Positions 6,114 through 15,336 of a DNA stretch of 64,000 nucleotides are shown piece by piece. Location of the stretch: positions 15,318 to 79,317 of the IMG/VR virus record IMGVR_UViG_3300012346_000689; one strand, given 5' to 3'. The notes under the pieces were generated by a model, which searched no databases, was not told the origin of the DNA, and saw only the letters and a list, made by a program, of their open reading frames with translations. The DNA comes from a virus. How positions within the stretch are numbered: the first letter of the stretch is position 1; each line of letters opens with the position of its first letter. The position numbers and the translations under genes were made by a program.

Positions 6114-6809
6114 ATGGATGTCATAGAAAGAGAGGGATTTTTAGCTTATAGCACGCTACCTAGTTTTAATCGTAAAGTTGACAAGGCTAAAGCGATAATT
6201 AAAGAAGCGATCGCTATTGCTCCGTCTTATGTAGCGGTGAGTTGGGGAAAAGATTCGACGGTATTGCTGCATTTGTGCCAGCAAATAAAGCCTGATATAT
6301 TAGCTATTTACCATGGACATATAGAGCGAGATTTAATATCTAATTATAGTGAAACAATTGATAATTATTGTCAGAAATTTTCAACTAATTTATTAATGTT
6401 AGAAACAGACGACGCTGATGAAAATATGGCAGTAAAAGCCCCTTATCAGCAATATCCAGTATGTTTTTTAGGTATTAGAGGAGAGGAAAATAAAAGAAGA
6501 AAAATAGCTTTAACTAAGTATGGATTAATTCATCAATACCAATCAGGTAAATTGATAGGAAACTGGAGAATAGCCCCGATCGGGTGGTGGACGTGGCAAG
6601 ATGTGTGGAGTTATATCGTCGCTAATGACATTCCGTATTTAAAGGCATATGATGACTCGATAAGAGGTTGGGAATTGTCGAGGACGACTGATCACGTCTC
6701 CAAAAAATTAAACAGACCGTTACATTTTCAGAGATTAGAGGAGTTTAAGCAGACCAATCATGTATATTATGATTATCTAAGAACACATTACCCAGAGGTT
6801 TTTTTATGA
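6114..6809 (+). CDS. CysH/PAPS-reductase-like PP-loop protein (type IV-B-associated kind)
   Basis: YVAVSWGKDSTVLLHL PP-loop, FLGIRGEENKRR, PIGWWTWQDVWSYIVANDIPY; close to the csf operon. Confidence 0.85.
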   Translation: MDVIEREGFLAYSTLPSFNRKVDKAKAIIKEAIAIAPSYVAVSWGKDSTVLLHLCQQIKPDILAIYHGHIERDLISNYSETIDNYCQKFSTNLLMLETDDADENMAVKAPYQQYPVCFLGIRGEENKRRKIALTKYGLIHQYQSGKLIGNWRIAPIGWWTWQDVWSYIVANDIPYLKAYDDSIRGWELSRTTDHVSKKLNRPLHFQRLEEFKQTNHVYYDYLRTHYPEVFL

Positions 6810-7423
6810 CACTGACAGATACTAAATGGGATTTATTTTCAATGGTAAGAATCGGAAAAGTACAAGAGAATGATGGCAGAATTTGTCCCTTTTTAACTCA
6901 GGCAATTGAATCATTACCATCTACAACGCAAGAGTTTATGATGGTTATGAGAGATTTTTATGAGTCTCAAGAAGGTATTTTGTCAGAAACTAATCAGCTG
7001 TATGTTGACGCTTTAAAAGGAAATTTTGATGATGGTACGTTAGGCAAATCTTTACAGGATTTTTATAGTGAGCATACTTTCCCTATGATAGGAAAGTTAG
7101 GAGCTTTTCCTGCTAAGTATATTTTGATCCATGATGCTCATCACATCCTAATTAATGTAGAGACTGATGAACAGGGAGAAATTGATACGATCGCTTTTGA
7201 AGGTGCTTTAATTAACCCTTTGAGTAGTCGTGGAATTGTGCCATTATTATCTCAAATTCGAGCATTTGAGAATACTAATTTTGACGTTATTCGAGTCGCT
7301 AAAGCTTGGGAAGTAGGTTGTAATGTTCGAGGTGATTTATTAGAAACTTGGGATATTTTGGCAGATTTGAACAGTTCTATTTCTAGTTTACAGCAAAAGT
7401 ATAATATTACACCAGTTCTCTAA
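6806..7423 (+). CDS. Coq4-like protein (HDxxH-x11-E motif)
   Basis: GTLGKSLQDF...IHDAHHILINVETDEQGEIDTIAFE; ATGA-coupled to the cysH-like gene. Confidence 0.6.
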   Translation: MTLTDTKWDLFSMVRIGKVQENDGRICPFLTQAIESLPSTTQEFMMVMRDFYESQEGILSETNQLYVDALKGNFDDGTLGKSLQDFYSEHTFPMIGKLGAFPAKYILIHDAHHILINVETDEQGEIDTIAFEGALINPLSSRGIVPLLSQIRAFENTNFDVIRVAKAWEVGCNVRGDLLETWDILADLNSSISSLQQKYNITPVL

Positions 7424-8286: not shown

Positions 8287-8348
8287 GGTTTTATCCTCTT
8301 TGTTTTACAATGTTTGATACACAGCCTAAAACTATACCTATAAAAAAT

Positions 8349-8900
8349 CTATAGAGCGTGTCTGAATAACCGGTATTGCCATTTGAAAGCAAGACTTTCG
8401 TTGTAGTATTCTAATTTTTCTGGTGAAGCATCGGAAAATAGAGAATACAGATCGATAAACTCATATAAATTAGGTAGGCTTAGATTTCCATATTTACGGT
8501 TTTCAATTAAATATTTAGCAGACGTACAAGTAATGATCGCATTTTTGATTAGGTTTGCCATTGTAATCCGTTTTGTGAGTTTTGGAAGTCTTTTTTGTTG
8601 GAAATCACTAAGGCAGTCCAACTTTACTAATTTATCGACATCTTTTTGTAATTTGGCAATAGTTTCAGATAATGTTTTTAACATTTCCGCTTTAATGTCT
8701 TCAGCCCATGCGATTTGTTTTTCAGAGCCTTCTAATTTAAGAGATTCTAAGTTTACCTGAAATCTTTCGATCGCAGATTCTAGCCTGTTAATTTGAAATA
8801 TAACGGTGACTATCACAGTACGACTAAAATATTTAGCATTAGCAATCATGTGGTTAAGTTTAGCGTTTAACTGTTGTAATCGTTTTTCTAATCGAGTCAT
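8349..8900 (-). CDS. hypothetical protein with GSEKQIAWAEDI motif (start reassigned to MTRLEK)
   Basis: GAGG RBS upstream; consensus-like TTGACA-18-TATAAT promoter on the minus strand at 8932-8961. Confidence 0.6.
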   Translation of the reverse strand: MTRLEKRLQQLNAKLNHMIANAKYFSRTVIVTVIFQINRLESAIERFQVNLESLKLEGSEKQIAWAEDIKAEMLKTLSETIAKLQKDVDKLVKLDCLSDFQQKRLPKLTKRITMANLIKNAIITCTSAKYLIENRKYGNLSLPNLYEFIDLYSLFSDASPEKLEYYNESLAFKWQYRLFRHAL

Positions 8901-8980
8901 GGGTTTAACCTCTCTACCTGTGTATATTCTAATTATACACACGATTAGAATCATTTGTCAACCCCTAAAATGAAAAAAAA

Positions 8981-9706
8981 ATGAAAAATTCTTGTATTCA
9001 AGTCACAGCAAAGCTTTCAAGCCATTTGTGTGTCAGTAATGATTGGACTCCGATGTTAGAGTCTATTCTGGAGTCAGTCTGGTTAGATGATCGTGGTTTA
9101 TCCGCGCGTAACCCGTTAAAAATAGAAGACACTATAGAGATCCCTATCCCATTGCGATCGCAGTCTGTCAAATCGACTAAATTCTATTCCGCTTCATCTC
9201 CTTTATATATAATTAAAAATGAGAGTGTGACTTACATTCGCTACCGGTGGGATTACCAGGAACATCATTGCGATTGGGGAAAAAAGAAAGCGCAGGTTTT
9301 TACTCAAGGATTTCATACTAAATACAAAAATACTCCATTACGTCTAGTCGAAACGGATCAAATAGACTGGTTTTGCGTAGGGGATAAAAATCAATTAATT
9401 GATATGTTGAACAAATGTACTCATGTTGGTGGTCATAGGGCTAGAGGTTATGGACAAGTCGATGAATGGATAGTTAACAAGATTGATGATGACTGGAGTT
9501 TGTGGCAGGGTGATCGATTAATGCGTCCGTTCCCCGTGCGATTGTTACCAGAAGGTATTGATGTTAGTACAGCAACTAAATTATTTTGGGGATGGAAAAC
9601 ACCAATTAGATGCCCAGAAAATAGAGAAGAATGTGTTATGCCATCTAACACTATTCATAAGGATAAAATAAATTTACACAATATTGATTATTTTGACGCT
9701 GTATAA
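8981..9706 (+). CDS. csf3: type IV CRISPR Cas5-family RAMP (Csf3), divergent paralogue A
   Basis: RWDYQEHHCDWGKKKA, IDWFCVGDK, Gly-rich loop HVGGHRARGYGQVDEW, LMRPFP; clearly paralogous to 12328-13005. Confidence 0.8.
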   Translation: MKNSCIQVTAKLSSHLCVSNDWTPMLESILESVWLDDRGLSARNPLKIEDTIEIPIPLRSQSVKSTKFYSASSPLYIIKNESVTYIRYRWDYQEHHCDWGKKKAQVFTQGFHTKYKNTPLRLVETDQIDWFCVGDKNQLIDMLNKCTHVGGHRARGYGQVDEWIVNKIDDDWSLWQGDRLMRPFPVRLLPEGIDVSTATKLFWGWKTPIRCPENREECVMPSNTIHKDKINLHNIDYFDAV

Positions 9707-9708
9707 TT

Positions 9709-10482
9709 ATGAATTACTGTTACATTTGCGGGGACAAAAATGCCTCAAAACCATTAGCTTTAAAAGACTCATTTACTGATCACAGTTTGTGCCAAGCTCC
9801 TCAGTCAAAAAATCTATGCGATCGCTGTTACGATTGCCTAGACGGAAAATATAAACAGTGCTGGTATCAAAAAGCTGATGGCAAAGTGAGTAAATTGTGG
9901 GGAAGAAATTGGTCTTGGTTGGTATCTGAAAAGGAGTCTTATCCACAATTTCAAGAGGGGAAAGACGGGTTATTAGAAGTGTTCAATTTACCAACTAGAG
10001 AACTAACTAGAAAGTGGATTGTAAACCCTCCTGCGCCACCTTTTACAATTTGTATAGCGGTGTCAGGGCAAAGGCATACCTATCCTTTTAGTCAGGTTAG
10101 TTATTCTCAAAAATTAATACCAATTACTTTCGAGAAAACTCTTATCAACTGGCGAAAAGATGATCAGTTTTACCTTAATCTCTTTGAAGAGTTTATGAGT
10201 TTAGGATTCTCAAAAACTGAGATAGTATCGGGTGATTATAGCCCAAATAAACTTACCTTGATCGATGTTGATGATTTCTTAGCTAAAGATAAGTATTTAG
10301 CTATTCTTAGAAATACCTCATTGATGGATTTATTGAGTTATATAGCTATAAAACCAGATGTGTTACCTGAAACTCAAGAGATTAATCCTGAACCGATAAA
10401 ACAACCTGCTAAAGTAGAGGTTGAAGACAAAAAGGAATCAGCTTTTACTATTGAATCAAATGGACAATTATCACTTTTTTAA
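9709..10482 (+). CDS. csf1: type IV Cas8-like large subunit (Csf1)
   Basis: CYICG...DSFTDH...LCDRC Zn ribbon, WIVNPPAPPFTICIAVSGQRHTYP, SQKLIPITFE. Confidence 0.8.
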   Translation: MNYCYICGDKNASKPLALKDSFTDHSLCQAPQSKNLCDRCYDCLDGKYKQCWYQKADGKVSKLWGRNWSWLVSEKESYPQFQEGKDGLLEVFNLPTRELTRKWIVNPPAPPFTICIAVSGQRHTYPFSQVSYSQKLIPITFEKTLINWRKDDQFYLNLFEEFMSLGFSKTEIVSGDYSPNKLTLIDVDDFLAKDKYLAILRNTSLMDLLSYIAIKPDVLPETQEINPEPIKQPAKVEVEDKKESAFTIESNGQLSLF

Positions 10483-10484
10483 TT

Positions 10485-10991
10485 ATGTACGGAATTAAAT
10501 CAACTGACCCTAAAATATCGTTAGCAACTGCTCTAACTTATTGGTGTTTTAAATGCCGTAAGCGTAACCCTCCAGTTGTTAAACCTGTAGATACTTGGAA
10601 TTATCTAAAAAGCAGCATTGCTAACGCTGCGACTCCATCAAAAAACCTTAACGATTACATAGAAAACCTCGGTAAAAAGTTACTTGTGCCATCTTTAAGA
10701 CCGGTAGAATGGACTCGAATTATTAGACCTAAGATTACTATTCAAAGAGTAGTTAAAGAAGATGGTAGAATCCTTGAACTATATGAGGATCAAGAAAATG
10801 AAGAGCTACTTTTCTATTCATGGGAAGACATTCTTATAGAGTTGGCTCCTCTAGGAATAACTGAACGACATATCCTCAAGACTTGCCTTAAGTACCCGTC
10901 TGTTATCTGTGCTTTTGCTAGAGTACGTTATGAAGATGACAAAGCGATCGGGCAAGAAATTGAGTTAGAATCTGAAACAATTGACGTTTAA
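10485..10991 (+). CDS. putative Cas11 small subunit of type IV-B
   Basis: Helical 168-aa protein between csf1 and csf2 (WNYLKSSIANAA...LNDYIENLGKKL); mainly a positional call. Confidence 0.6.
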   Translation: MYGIKSTDPKISLATALTYWCFKCRKRNPPVVKPVDTWNYLKSSIANAATPSKNLNDYIENLGKKLLVPSLRPVEWTRIIRPKITIQRVVKEDGRILELYEDQENEELLFYSWEDILIELAPLGITERHILKTCLKYPSVICAFARVRYEDDKAIGQEIELESETIDV

Positions 10992-11009
10992 AATTAAAAG
11001 AGGTATTGT

Positions 11010-12224
11010 ATGTTTGAAAATTATGATGTAAATGACCGTCATCAAATAAGATTTGATGTAGTAATTGAAACCCTGTCACCATTAAGCCATATTGGGGAAA
11101 GTATAGGTAATCAAAGCAATTTAAAAACTTTAGATATTACCGACCTGACAGGTGAATCTAATCCTGTTTTTGTGTACTCTTCTAATAGTTTAAGAAACGG
11201 TTTGTTCAGGCGAAAAGGTACGTTATCAATGTTAGATGACCTTGATTTAACTGTTAATCCTACAACTCACCAAACGTTATTTGCGGGTGGTTTTATTGAA
11301 GGTGGCACAGCAGTAGATTTAGAATTAGATGCCAAAGTTCGGAAGTTTTTGCCATCAATATCGGTGCTAGGAACAGCTAAACCACCAGGGCTATTTAATA
11401 GTAATAATAGTCAAATGATTGGTGGCAGAATTAATATAGGAGGTGCTTATTTAGTATGTTTAGAAACTGCTGAATACATCTATAAAAGTTTTCCCCCTTT
11501 ATTGCCTTATTCAGTGCTTTCGTTTGTAAAAGAATTGGTAGAAGCAAAGCAATCTTTATTTAATGATAGAGTGAATGCTTGGCTTTATCAAAAACAAATT
11601 TCTGGTATTCAAGAAAAGGTAAGAAATTATCAAGAGTTATTGTTAGAATATATGCCACTATTAGAAGATAAATTAAGGAGTTATACGCAGTGGCTAACCT
11701 ATAATCAAAAGGTCAGAATGGATAGTTTAAAAGACCCACATTTAGCACAATATATTAACAGTAATCATCAAATAGGAGGGCAACAAACAAGCTTACTGAG
11801 TGAATCAAAGCCAGATAAAAAGAAGGGTAAATCTTCTGATGAAAAGCACTCTCAACAGATGATTATGGGCGACTGGCTGTTACAGCCGGGTGCGACTTTA
11901 TATTCTCGTTGGGATGGAAATATCACTGATGTTGAAGAGGGAATGCTCGCAGCCGCACTACTAAAATTCGCTGAATCACCGTACTTAGGAGGTAAATGTG
12001 GAACAGGGTGCGGACTTGTTTCTTTTGATATTTATTATCGATCGGGTCAAGAAGCGGGCAAGTGGCTGACTATAGCTCCAGACTCTCAAATATTGTCAGA
12101 AAGATGTCAGGAAAACTATCAAAGATATATGCAACATTTAGAGCAATTTAAAGGATATATTGCTTCAGCAAAACAGGATATAACTAAGTTTCTAAGTGAA
12201 CGTTCTGGGAGTCGCACCCAGTAG
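11010..12224 (+). CDS. csf2: type IV Cas7 backbone RAMP (Csf2)
   Basis: IETLSPLSHIGES, PVFVYSSNSLRNGLFRR, LFAGG, FLPSISVLG, IGGRINIG, YLGGKCGTGCGLV Gly loop. Confidence 0.88.
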   Translation: MFENYDVNDRHQIRFDVVIETLSPLSHIGESIGNQSNLKTLDITDLTGESNPVFVYSSNSLRNGLFRRKGTLSMLDDLDLTVNPTTHQTLFAGGFIEGGTAVDLELDAKVRKFLPSISVLGTAKPPGLFNSNNSQMIGGRINIGGAYLVCLETAEYIYKSFPPLLPYSVLSFVKELVEAKQSLFNDRVNAWLYQKQISGIQEKVRNYQELLLEYMPLLEDKLRSYTQWLTYNQKVRMDSLKDPHLAQYINSNHQIGGQQTSLLSESKPDKKKGKSSDEKHSQQMIMGDWLLQPGATLYSRWDGNITDVEEGMLAAALLKFAESPYLGGKCGTGCGLVSFDIYYRSGQEAGKWLTIAPDSQILSERCQENYQRYMQHLEQFKGYIASAKQDITKFLSERSGSRTQ

Positions 12225-12306
12225 CCGAGTTCAGTTCCTTTTTTCATGATAATTCGGGACTCGGCAAGTGTACAAACTCTTCTGAATACTGTTTCAGCCA
12301 ACGTTC
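12198..12306. ncRNA. candidate tRNA-like cloverleaf RNA between csf2 and the second csf3
   Basis: 7-bp closing stem GAACGTT/AACGTTC; hairpins CTGGG/CCCAG (loop reads TGCGACT on the minus strand, T-arm geometry), GCCGAGTTC/GGACTCGGC and CTGAA/TTCAG. Confidence 0.5.
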
Positions 12307-12327
12307 TCTATCAATATATCATAAATA

Positions 12328-13005
12328 ATGGATAACTTACAAGTAACGGCTTATCTATCAACTCCACTCTCTACTGACCTATTTAGCCCTAATCTAGACG
12401 CGCTATTGTATCGATTATGGCTAGAAGAAAAAGGTCTTTATAATCCTAACGTAAAACGGACTGAGGATGTTATAAAAGCAGATGTTCCTATCAAATTGAT
12501 AGAAGAAAAAGGGTATCAATATTACTCTGTATCTGCGCCTCATTTTATCATCCTAAACGAACAAAACACCCGCTATCGGAGGCGTTGGGATTATCAAGAG
12601 CATCATTGTGACTTTGGCAAAAAGAAGGCTAAAGTCGATACGCAACAAGGCAATACTAAAAGCTGCGATCTGCCACTGAGACTGATAGAAACTAATAGGA
12701 TAGACTGGTTTTGTAACGGGGACAAATCAGAAATTGATCGTCTATTGTCTTCTGTAACAAATATCGGTAAAAAAATCTCTCAAGGTTTTGGGCAAGTTTT
12801 TCGTTGGCAGTCTCAAGTGGTAGAGGATGATTTTAGCGTCTGGCAAGATAAGCGATTAATGCGGATTTTGCCAGCAGAACTCATCCCTGAACATTTAAAA
12901 GAAAGGTATCCTCTGCGAGCGTGGACGTATCATCCCCCGTACTTTTTGCCTGAAAACAAAGCACTCTGCGCTATGCCTGCCAATACAAGAAGCGCATTAA
13001 ACTAA
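12328..13005 (+). CDS. csf3: type IV Cas5-family RAMP (Csf3), canonical paralogue B
   Basis: MDNLQVTAYLSTPL...PNLDALLY, YSVSAP, DTQQGNTKSCDLP, IDWFCNGD, NIGKKISQGFGQVFRW, YHPPYF. Confidence 0.85.
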   Translation: MDNLQVTAYLSTPLSTDLFSPNLDALLYRLWLEEKGLYNPNVKRTEDVIKADVPIKLIEEKGYQYYSVSAPHFIILNEQNTRYRRRWDYQEHHCDFGKKKAKVDTQQGNTKSCDLPLRLIETNRIDWFCNGDKSEIDRLLSSVTNIGKKISQGFGQVFRWQSQVVEDDFSVWQDKRLMRILPAELIPEHLKERYPLRAWTYHPPYFLPENKALCAMPANTRSALN

Positions 13006-13010
13006 CAGAA

Positions 13011-13034
13011 AAAACGGCTAAACTTAGCCGTTTT
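13011..13034. terminator. bidirectional terminator closing the csf operon
   Basis: AAAACGGCTA-AACT-TAGCCGTTTT. Confidence 0.7.
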
Positions 13035-14325: not shown

Positions 14326-15264
14326 ATGTCAATTAGTACAATGAAACACATAGTTATGTTTTCTGGTGGAGTTGCGTCGTGGTGTGCTGCTAAATTAGTA
14401 AGCGATCGCTACGGGATAGACAATTTAATATTACTTTTTGCTGATACTTTAATAGAGGATCAGGACTGTTATCGATTTATTTTAGAGGGTGCGGCTAACA
14501 TATTCAATATGAGACTTAACCCTAGATATATAGAAAAAGGGTTTTTAAATATTCCTGAGATAGGGGATATAAACCGTAATACTGTTTTATGGAGAATAGC
14601 AAACGAGTCTAGAGTAATTAGGGCTAATTTAGATAATGGTTTAGTCTGGTTGCAAGAAGGAAATGATGTTTGGGATGTGTTTTTTGAAGACAAATTCCTA
14701 AATCATTATGTTAGTAATTGCTCCAAGAAACTTAAACAAAAACCATGTAAAGGCTGGTTAAATTGGGGATTAGAGTCACAAGAGCCAACGGTAGCAAAAT
14801 ACTTAAATAACCCTGAAAATGTGACAATTTATTTAGGTATAGATATGAACGAGATTGAAAGAGCAGAGAAGATAATAGAAGGATATAAACCGTTTAAGGT
14901 AGATTTTCCTTTGCTTTGGGATAATTGGTTAGATAGAAAAGGGCAATTTGACCTATTAGAATCAGTTAATATTCAGCCACCGAGACTTTATAAATATGGT
15001 TTTTCTCATAACAATTGTGGAGGTTTTTGTGTTAAGGCGGGTAAGAAACAATTTGCACAATTACTAGATACTTTTCCTGATAGATATAATTACCACGCTC
15101 AACAAGAAAAAGCTTTCCAAAAGCATATAAAACAAGAGATTACTATATTAAGAGAGCAACATAATAACGAGAAAACAAGGCTTAGTTTGGCAGAGTTTAA
15201 AGAGCGTCCTAAGCAGTTGTCATTGTTTGATGCGATGGGTGGCTGCGGGTGTTTTATTGACTAA
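14326..15264 (+). CDS. phage PAPS-reductase-like PP-loop protein with Cys clusters
   Basis: HIVMFSGGVASW, LFADTLIEDQD, CSKKLK, YLGID, GFSHNNCGGFCVKAG, C-terminal GGCGCF. Confidence 0.75.
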   Translation: MSISTMKHIVMFSGGVASWCAAKLVSDRYGIDNLILLFADTLIEDQDCYRFILEGAANIFNMRLNPRYIEKGFLNIPEIGDINRNTVLWRIANESRVIRANLDNGLVWLQEGNDVWDVFFEDKFLNHYVSNCSKKLKQKPCKGWLNWGLESQEPTVAKYLNNPENVTIYLGIDMNEIERAEKIIEGYKPFKVDFPLLWDNWLDRKGQFDLLESVNIQPPRLYKYGFSHNNCGGFCVKAGKKQFAQLLDTFPDRYNYHAQQEKAFQKHIKQEITILREQHNNEKTRLSLAEFKERPKQLSLFDAMGGCGCFID

Positions 15265-15336
15265 TCCAAGATGCAGGAGTTGAACCTGCCTAGTACAAAT
15301 TATGAGTTTGTTGCCTAACCGATCGGCCAATCTTGG
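15265..15336 (-). tRNA. tRNA with CAT anticodon, Ile2 (lysidine) type
   Basis: CCAAGAT/ATCTTGG acceptor, D-arm GGCCGATCGGTTAGGC, ACAAA-CTCATAA-TTTGT, GCAGG-TTCAACT-CCTGC, discriminator A; resembles cyanobacterial tRNA-Ile2, but Met cannot be excluded. Confidence 0.85.

Follow-up and report, generated by a model that had tools for sequence, protein, structure and literature searches.

Why would a type IV-B operon carry two genes for its Csf3 (Cas5) subunit? The operon that raises this question lies at positions 8981-13005 of a 64,000-nt stretch of viral DNA (the window), which is itself positions 15,318-79,317 of the IMG/VR record IMGVR_UViG_3300012346_000689. Its five plus-strand genes matched PADLOC models for type IV Cas5, Cas8, Cas11, Cas7 and again Cas5, in that order, giving the operon order csf3A-csf1-cas11-csf2-csf3B. 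The two Csf3 paralogues were indeed its first and last genes, as an initial annotation of the DNA had placed them, and both matched the type IV Cas5 model: csf3A at 8981-9706 (plus strand, 241 aa; Csf3_0_IV, E = 5e-39), and csf3B, the canonical IV-B Csf3, at 12328-13005 (plus strand, 225 aa; E = 2e-44). We call the two kinds of protein, here and in relatives, the A class and the B class. Our preferred answer, to which we assign a probability of roughly 0.5, is that A and B may be interchangeable caps for a single slot of the complex, giving two ribonucleoprotein (RNP) populations that would differ in RNA-end or target preference.

Sequence, fold and motifs of the two Csf3 copies

A and B were 43% identical over 219 residues (E = 1e-65), and both open reading frames (ORFs) were intact. 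Synonymous sites between them were saturated (proportion of synonymous differences, pS, 0.78), which excludes both an assembly repeat and a recent duplication and makes the split an old one; the same saturation makes the ratio of non-synonymous to synonymous rates (dN/dS) between A and B unusable. Compared with its counterpart in the close variant genome L203, csf3A showed 26 synonymous and 7 non-synonymous changes (dN/dS 0.060), and csf1 gave 0.058. Copy A is under purifying selection; the neutral evolution that the initial annotation had proposed to look for by dN/dS was not found for it. B was compared only through a protein variant, P0155 (about 30 substitutions, with the canonical Tyr restored), which yields no dN/dS. 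A kept 30 and B 25 of the 34 columns conserved across the family.

Structure predictions agreed with the Cas5 assignment. The A model (pLDDT 76.7, by the predicted local distance difference test) and the B model (pLDDT 89.9) had the same best fold match, 8RC3_F, with template-modelling (TM) scores of 0.61 and 0.72, respectively (Foldseek), and profile searches matched both copies to 7XFZ and 8RC3. As modelled, each has the form of a Cas5-group Csf3, a single RNA recognition motif with a thumb and a glycine-rich loop, in the IV-A Csf3 fold.

All the motifs quoted in the initial annotation were present. The block RWDYQEHHCD[WF]GKKKA is shared (residues 89-104 of A and 86-101 of B). The glycine-rich loop, which lines the RNA end in Cas5-group proteins, reads VGGHRARGYG in A (residues 149-158; 9425-9454, plus strand), without a lysine pair (KK), and IGKKISQGFG in B (residues 146-155; 12763-12792, plus strand), with it. 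In the thumb-tip motif of A (residues 107-119; 9299-9337, plus strand) the conserved Lys is kept and the canonical Tyr and Leu are gone; that of B (residues 104-116; 12637-12675, plus strand) has Cys113, which is Tyr in P0155 (C113Y).

The B class is the usual IV-B form, with K-x-Y-x-L-P in the thumb and GKK in the glycine-rich loop; among Csf3 proteins of cyanobacterial elements, those of the B class had Tyr113 in 96%, Leu115 in 88% and the KK pair in 96-100% of cases. All 11 A-class proteins lacked Tyr113, Leu115 (B numbering) and an intact KK pair, which were lost together. Since the residues that replace Tyr and KK vary widely among A genes, the A class is better described by the loss of conserved B residues than by a second defined recognition motif. 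Its thumb tips and glycine-rich loops resemble those of IV-A more than the B-class ones do.

These differing segments had been described as RNA-contacting. The difference itself stood; the contact with RNA is an inference. In profile alignments the thumb motif fell on the stretch of IV-A Cas5 containing T114 and K117/K119, and in IV-A structures this loop lines the protospacer adjacent motif (PAM) and clamps the target-strand phosphate, Cas5 as a whole binding the 5' tag of the CRISPR RNA (crRNA) and Cas8 (PMC11519345). The thumb difference between A and B may thus concern the target as much as the RNA.

Some A-class proteins also end in a D[WFY]F tail, IDYF in the window (9683-9694, plus strand), which is predicted to be disordered (pLDDT <50 over most of the tail). 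This tail was found in 6 of 11 A-class and 0 of 26 B-class proteins and, among 149 representatives, in 7 of 43 without KK and 0 of 106 with it (raw counts, uncorrected for kinship); independent pairs gave a trend in the same direction that was not significant. A sliding-clamp motif was rejected as an identity for the tail, the Gln of QL[SD]LF being missing.

Recurrence and origin of the A class

We compared 43 non-redundant loci of the clade, the relatives having been found with Csf2 and narrow alignments; seven A-class proteins were looked up on purpose, so A is over-counted. A and B shared an operon in five loci (the window, L008, L012, L028/L095 and L200), and one locus had B plus an orphan divergent copy (L002). 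In four (L009, L024, L098 and L198) A was the only csf3 seen and the position behind csf2 was unoccupied, 29 had only B, two held A fragments or orphans and two were partial. More than one csf3 copy occurred in 2 of the 31 untargeted loci.

The next IV-B gene after A was csf1 in 10 of 10 operons, and, except in L012, L134 and the window, B stood after csf2 and before cysH or cas6-cysH in nearly all loci. Permuting the gene order of L200 gives that of the window, so the bracketing of the operon by its two csf3 genes results from block shuffling and needs no special meaning. A-bearing loci did not cluster on the CysH, Csf1 or Csf2 trees, and near-sister Csf2 proteins were found in an A-only (L024) and a B-only (L090) locus. 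The CysH tree of cyanophage IV-B loci contained SWG[KT]DS and SGGKDS subtypes, with Coq4-like and cupin genes only beside SWG. An association of A with SWG-type CysH (8/8 vs 12/28, nominal p = 0.005) was unsupported by independent pairs and is a lead only.

A phylogeny, also proposed in the initial annotation, pointed to several origins of the A class once the motif columns were left out, as a test of single origin requires. Under this condition a single A clade was rejected (approximately unbiased test, p = 0.0145), supported branches forced at least three changes, and window A joined window B and the only Csf3 of L005 in one group (support 95). The Csf1 and Csf2 of L005 were also the nearest to those of the window. 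Gene conversion or a mosaic origin of A was rejected: synonymous sites of the shared block differ between the copies, and all three thirds of A were nearest to B-class genes. L012 holds a separate tandem pair (54% identity), and an intermediate state occurs in a gene of a Gloeobacter plasmid, which retains Tyr and Leu but not KK. We read these sequence comparisons as pointing to a probable origin of the A class in recurrent duplications, after which the same positions changed.

Several other loci held unusual csf3 arrangements. The one backbone of L028/L095 (L028 3387-8662) carries whole csf3-cysH-csf1 modules in a stack: csf3 occurs three times (as B, A, B), cysH twice, in different subtypes with 24% identity, and csf1 twice, with 51% identity. 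L191 (8915-10945), from a distant IV-B clade, has a tandem csf3 pair that is 43% identical; both copies have the canonical Tyr, and one has KN instead of KK. The orphan csf3 of L002 (12094-12717, minus strand) lacks most of the thumb, overlaps the start of a thymidylate-synthase-like gene and lies 3 kb from a complete IV-B operon. In L197 (6056-7389), an orphan A-class csf3 lies directly 3' of a cas6e-like gene, in a 17-kb locus without any other csf gene. L267 (NZ_CP063846.1 77455-82462) is an unannotated IV-B operon with cas6 and cupin genes on plasmid pGMOR1 of Gloeobacter morelensis, a cultured host usable for experiments.

One slot or another explanation

The slot shared by A and B would be the RNA 5'-end position next to Csf1. 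The two would compete for it, and two RNP populations would form on one Csf2/Cas11 backbone. B, which keeps the near-invariant thumb Tyr/Leu and loop KK of the clade, presumably reads the usual RNA end. A would descend from an old duplication of a B-like gene in this lineage, having lost the B residues, shifted toward an IV-A-like thumb tip and glycine-rich loop and gained the D[WFY]F tail as a putative docking element. This residue loss, the IV-A-like shift, the tail and the purifying selection suggest that A would load a different or less sequence-restricted set of RNAs, or engage the target differently. Each class apparently suffices alone, A has been retained for long under selection, and change has recurred at nucleic-acid-facing sites; for these reasons we consider competition for one slot the most economical reading. 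The two alternative specificities suggested in the initial annotation fit the selection on A (dN/dS 0.06) and the recurrence of the pair in four other operons, with the ligands putative.

Several observations weigh against competition for one slot. The A-only contigs are fragments of 4.5-17 kb, and a B gene could lie elsewhere in those genomes; 7 of 8 near-complete records hold one csf3 copy, so most relatives manage with one. After correction for kinship, the csf1 adjacency of A rests on 3 of 3 independent pairs (p = 0.25), and the covariation of Tyr and KK has a median p of 0.22. With all columns kept, a single A clade was not rejected (p = 0.18-0.28). Selection was measurable for A and not for B, and the varied replacements of Tyr and KK look like relaxed recognition, not a second defined specificity.

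In one rival explanation, which we regard as unlikely, A is a decoy or switch subunit that enters the phage's own or a competitor's Csf complex and changes or blocks its activity. The precedent is AcrIB3, a protein with 38% identity to its Cas5 that becomes part of a Cascade that is defective (10.1101/2023.06.24.545427); the loss in A of residues near-invariant in B would suit such a role, as would divergent csf3 orphans away from operons (L002 on its minus strand, L197 and CrV-01T ORF58; PMC12481020). Yet A is part of the operon, with 2 nt between it and csf1, an A-class gene is the only csf3 seen in four operons, and A-like motif states occur in the sole Csf3 of other clades (L004, L269 and L270) and resemble working IV-A Cas5. 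Somewhat less probable still is that the copies do the same job, through redundancy or a replacement in progress, with double loci as way-stations between B-only and A-only states of a heavily shuffled cassette. Both end states exist, gene order is very fluid, modules are stacked in L028/L095, and both tandem copies of L191 have the canonical Tyr. Long retention of a redundant copy is nevertheless unlikely when synonymous sites between A and B are saturated while A has a dN/dS of 0.06, and the same sites changed in at least three separate origins.

We consider it improbable that a single complex uses A and B jointly, either paired as a heterodimer or with one of them capping the 3' end of the filament. 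They share an operon, no 3' cap is known for IV-B, in IV-A it is Cas6 that caps the 3' end, and the IV-B map shows unmodelled density at both ends (PMC7937560). Against this, both models best match the 5'-cap Cas5 of IV-A, Cas6 is available in this genome, and either class seems able to serve an operon without the other (29 loci for B, 4 for A), which weakens the suggestion in the initial annotation that one copy caps the other end. A predicted complex of A, B and CysH scored 0.02 with controls not run, and counts neither for nor against.

The initial annotation had also proposed that one copy replaces a missing Cas6. Type I-C Cas5d processes pre-crRNA, and there is no cas6 inside the window; this precedent and this absence are what recommend a nuclease role. 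The genome, however, encodes a PF09559 Cas6 (132 bits) outside the window, at G000:80442-81008 on the minus strand (L204, L205), so the proposal loses its premise. Measured across the genome ends, ~27 kb separate this stand-alone, Myxan-type cas6 from the IV-B operon, and its product shares 42% identity with the Cas6 encoded by L012, a locus with two csf3 copies. Cas6 occurred in 11 of 28 related records, A-bearing loci included; A-class genes co-occur with cas6 in L012, L024, L098 and L200, both A and a PF09559 Cas6 are lacking from many B-only records, and no I-C Cas5d was among the 50 fold matches listed for either model. A processing nuclease is thus very improbable. IV-B is defined by the lack of Cas6, with rare exceptions allowed (10.1101/780106); in this clade cas6 is a common exception.

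Returning to competition for one slot, a bolder version of it, which we hold only tentatively and think doubtful, is that an exchange of the Cas5 cap lets cyanophage IV-B systems change function. B would load a specific RNA end; the convergent A, paired with Csf1 and equipped with an IV-A-like thumb and a new docking tail, would make a second machine, for example one for double-stranded DNA engagement or for host-derived RNAs cut by the phage Cas6.

Genome setting and comparison with known systems

The virus record is 84,261 bp long, with direct terminal repeats and an integrase-like gene. It contains 65 HIP1 sites against ~0.5 expected, indicating a cyanobacterial host. The type IV-B core of csf1, csf2 and csf3 is present by the PADLOC type IV models, and the NCBIfam matches to these genes fall under the equivalog cut-offs. 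Between the csf3 copies, all on the plus strand, lie csf1 (Cas8-like with a Zn finger, 9709-10482; E = 4e-25), cas11 (small subunit, 10485-10991; E = 5e-8) and csf2 (Cas7 backbone, 11010-12224; E = 2e-40). No repeat family with CRISPR spacing was found in the window or the whole genome, no dinG adjoins the operon, and the genome holds no third csf3. Judged from its genes, the system is of type IV-B layout (core genes, cas11, cysH and the absence of an array), and it departs from the usual form in having cas6 and two csf3 instead of a single csf3 per operon. Csf1 ends in QLSLF (10465-10482), an ending of a kind shared by about 8 of 36 Csf1 proteins, and a variable loop of Csf2 includes a stretch similar to Q-x-S-L-[LF], which relatives also show; both resemble a sliding-clamp binding motif.

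The divergent control region upstream of csf3A (8900-8980), with a perfect sigma-70 consensus on the minus strand (8961-8932), is conserved in L203. Just upstream, a 201-aa minus-strand ORF at 8300-8894 is absent from L203, which amounts to a clean insertion or deletion of ~600 bp behind this promoter. A terminator-like hairpin (13011-13034, listed on the minus strand, with T-runs on both sides) closes the operon. Between csf2 and csf3B, overlapping the csf2 stop, lies a structured multi-stem, cloverleaf-like element (12198-12306; fold z = -3.35 on the plus and -1.5 on the minus strand), a candidate RNA or processing site that could uncouple csf3B expression from the upstream genes. It had no Rfam match and no homologue in the fetched loci, and matches in a 15-mer scan did not extend.

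The IV-B accessory gene cysH, encoding a PP-loop protein of the SWGKDS subtype (6114-6809, plus strand; Pfam PAPS_reduct, E = 6e-13), groups with operon-borne homologues in the IV-B CysH tree. It is followed by a Coq4-like accessory gene (6806-7423, plus strand; weak Pfam Coq4 match), homologues of which recur beside SWG-type cysH (L018, L020, L030, L041, L097, L100 and L200). The two genes (6114-7423) form a separate unit, with three minus-strand ORFs between them and the operon. Downstream of the operon are a second PAPS-reductase-like gene of general phage type (phrog_424, 14326-15336) and, directly after it, a minus-strand tRNA with a CAT anticodon (15265-15336). Six copies of a palindromic 25-bp motif, a likely operator for a phage regulator, lie in the window (13777, 16396, 55243, 56743, 61431 and 62151).

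Phage-borne, array-less IV-B operons are already known. A description of two Csf3 classes in one IV-B operon was not found in the literature searched, which covered few subscription papers. The locus bears on what RNA IV-B complexes carry and on a possible selection of that RNA by Csf3; in the one complex that has been solved, the RNAs were mixed (PMC7937560). It offers two natural Csf3 variants on one backbone, differing at a small number of sites that changed jointly in three or more lineages, and its value lies mainly in being a test case at hand for a role of Csf3 in deciding the load of IV-B complexes. Should two caps give two activities, this would be a modular retargeting for which no description was found for class 1 effectors in the same literature.

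The cyanophage CrV-01T encodes a Csf3 homologue recognised by structure, ORF58, which parallels the orphan copies of L002 and L197 (PMC12481020). Unlike A, it is single and highly diverged, and its genome has a CRISPR array, sequence searches having given no Cas protein. AcrIB3 is, like A, a divergent Cas5 paralogue on a mobile element (38% identical to its canonical counterpart, against 43% for A; 10.1101/2023.06.24.545427). Its homologues make up a single clade and are located outside cas loci, whereas A is the first gene of an operon, has several apparent origins and seems able to serve as the only Csf3.

The IV-B system of Mycobacterium sp. JS623, in whose Csf complex Csf3 was not resolved in the map (PMC7937560), shares with the window csf1, cas11, csf2, csf3, a cysH-like gene, the lack of an array and a mobile element. 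The window differs in its two csf3 classes, its phage host, the Myxan-type cas6 elsewhere in the genome and the Coq4-like gene. In fold, both copies come closest to the Cas5 of types IV-A1 and IV-A3 (8RC3, 7XG1 and 8RC2; TM 0.59-0.74; PMC11519345). IV-A systems have one Cas5, a CRISPR array and DinG; the window has two Cas5, lacks an array and has no dinG next to the operon, so that to ascribe PAM reading to A would be an analogy only. The thumb Lys of IV-A (K117/K119) is kept in both A and B.

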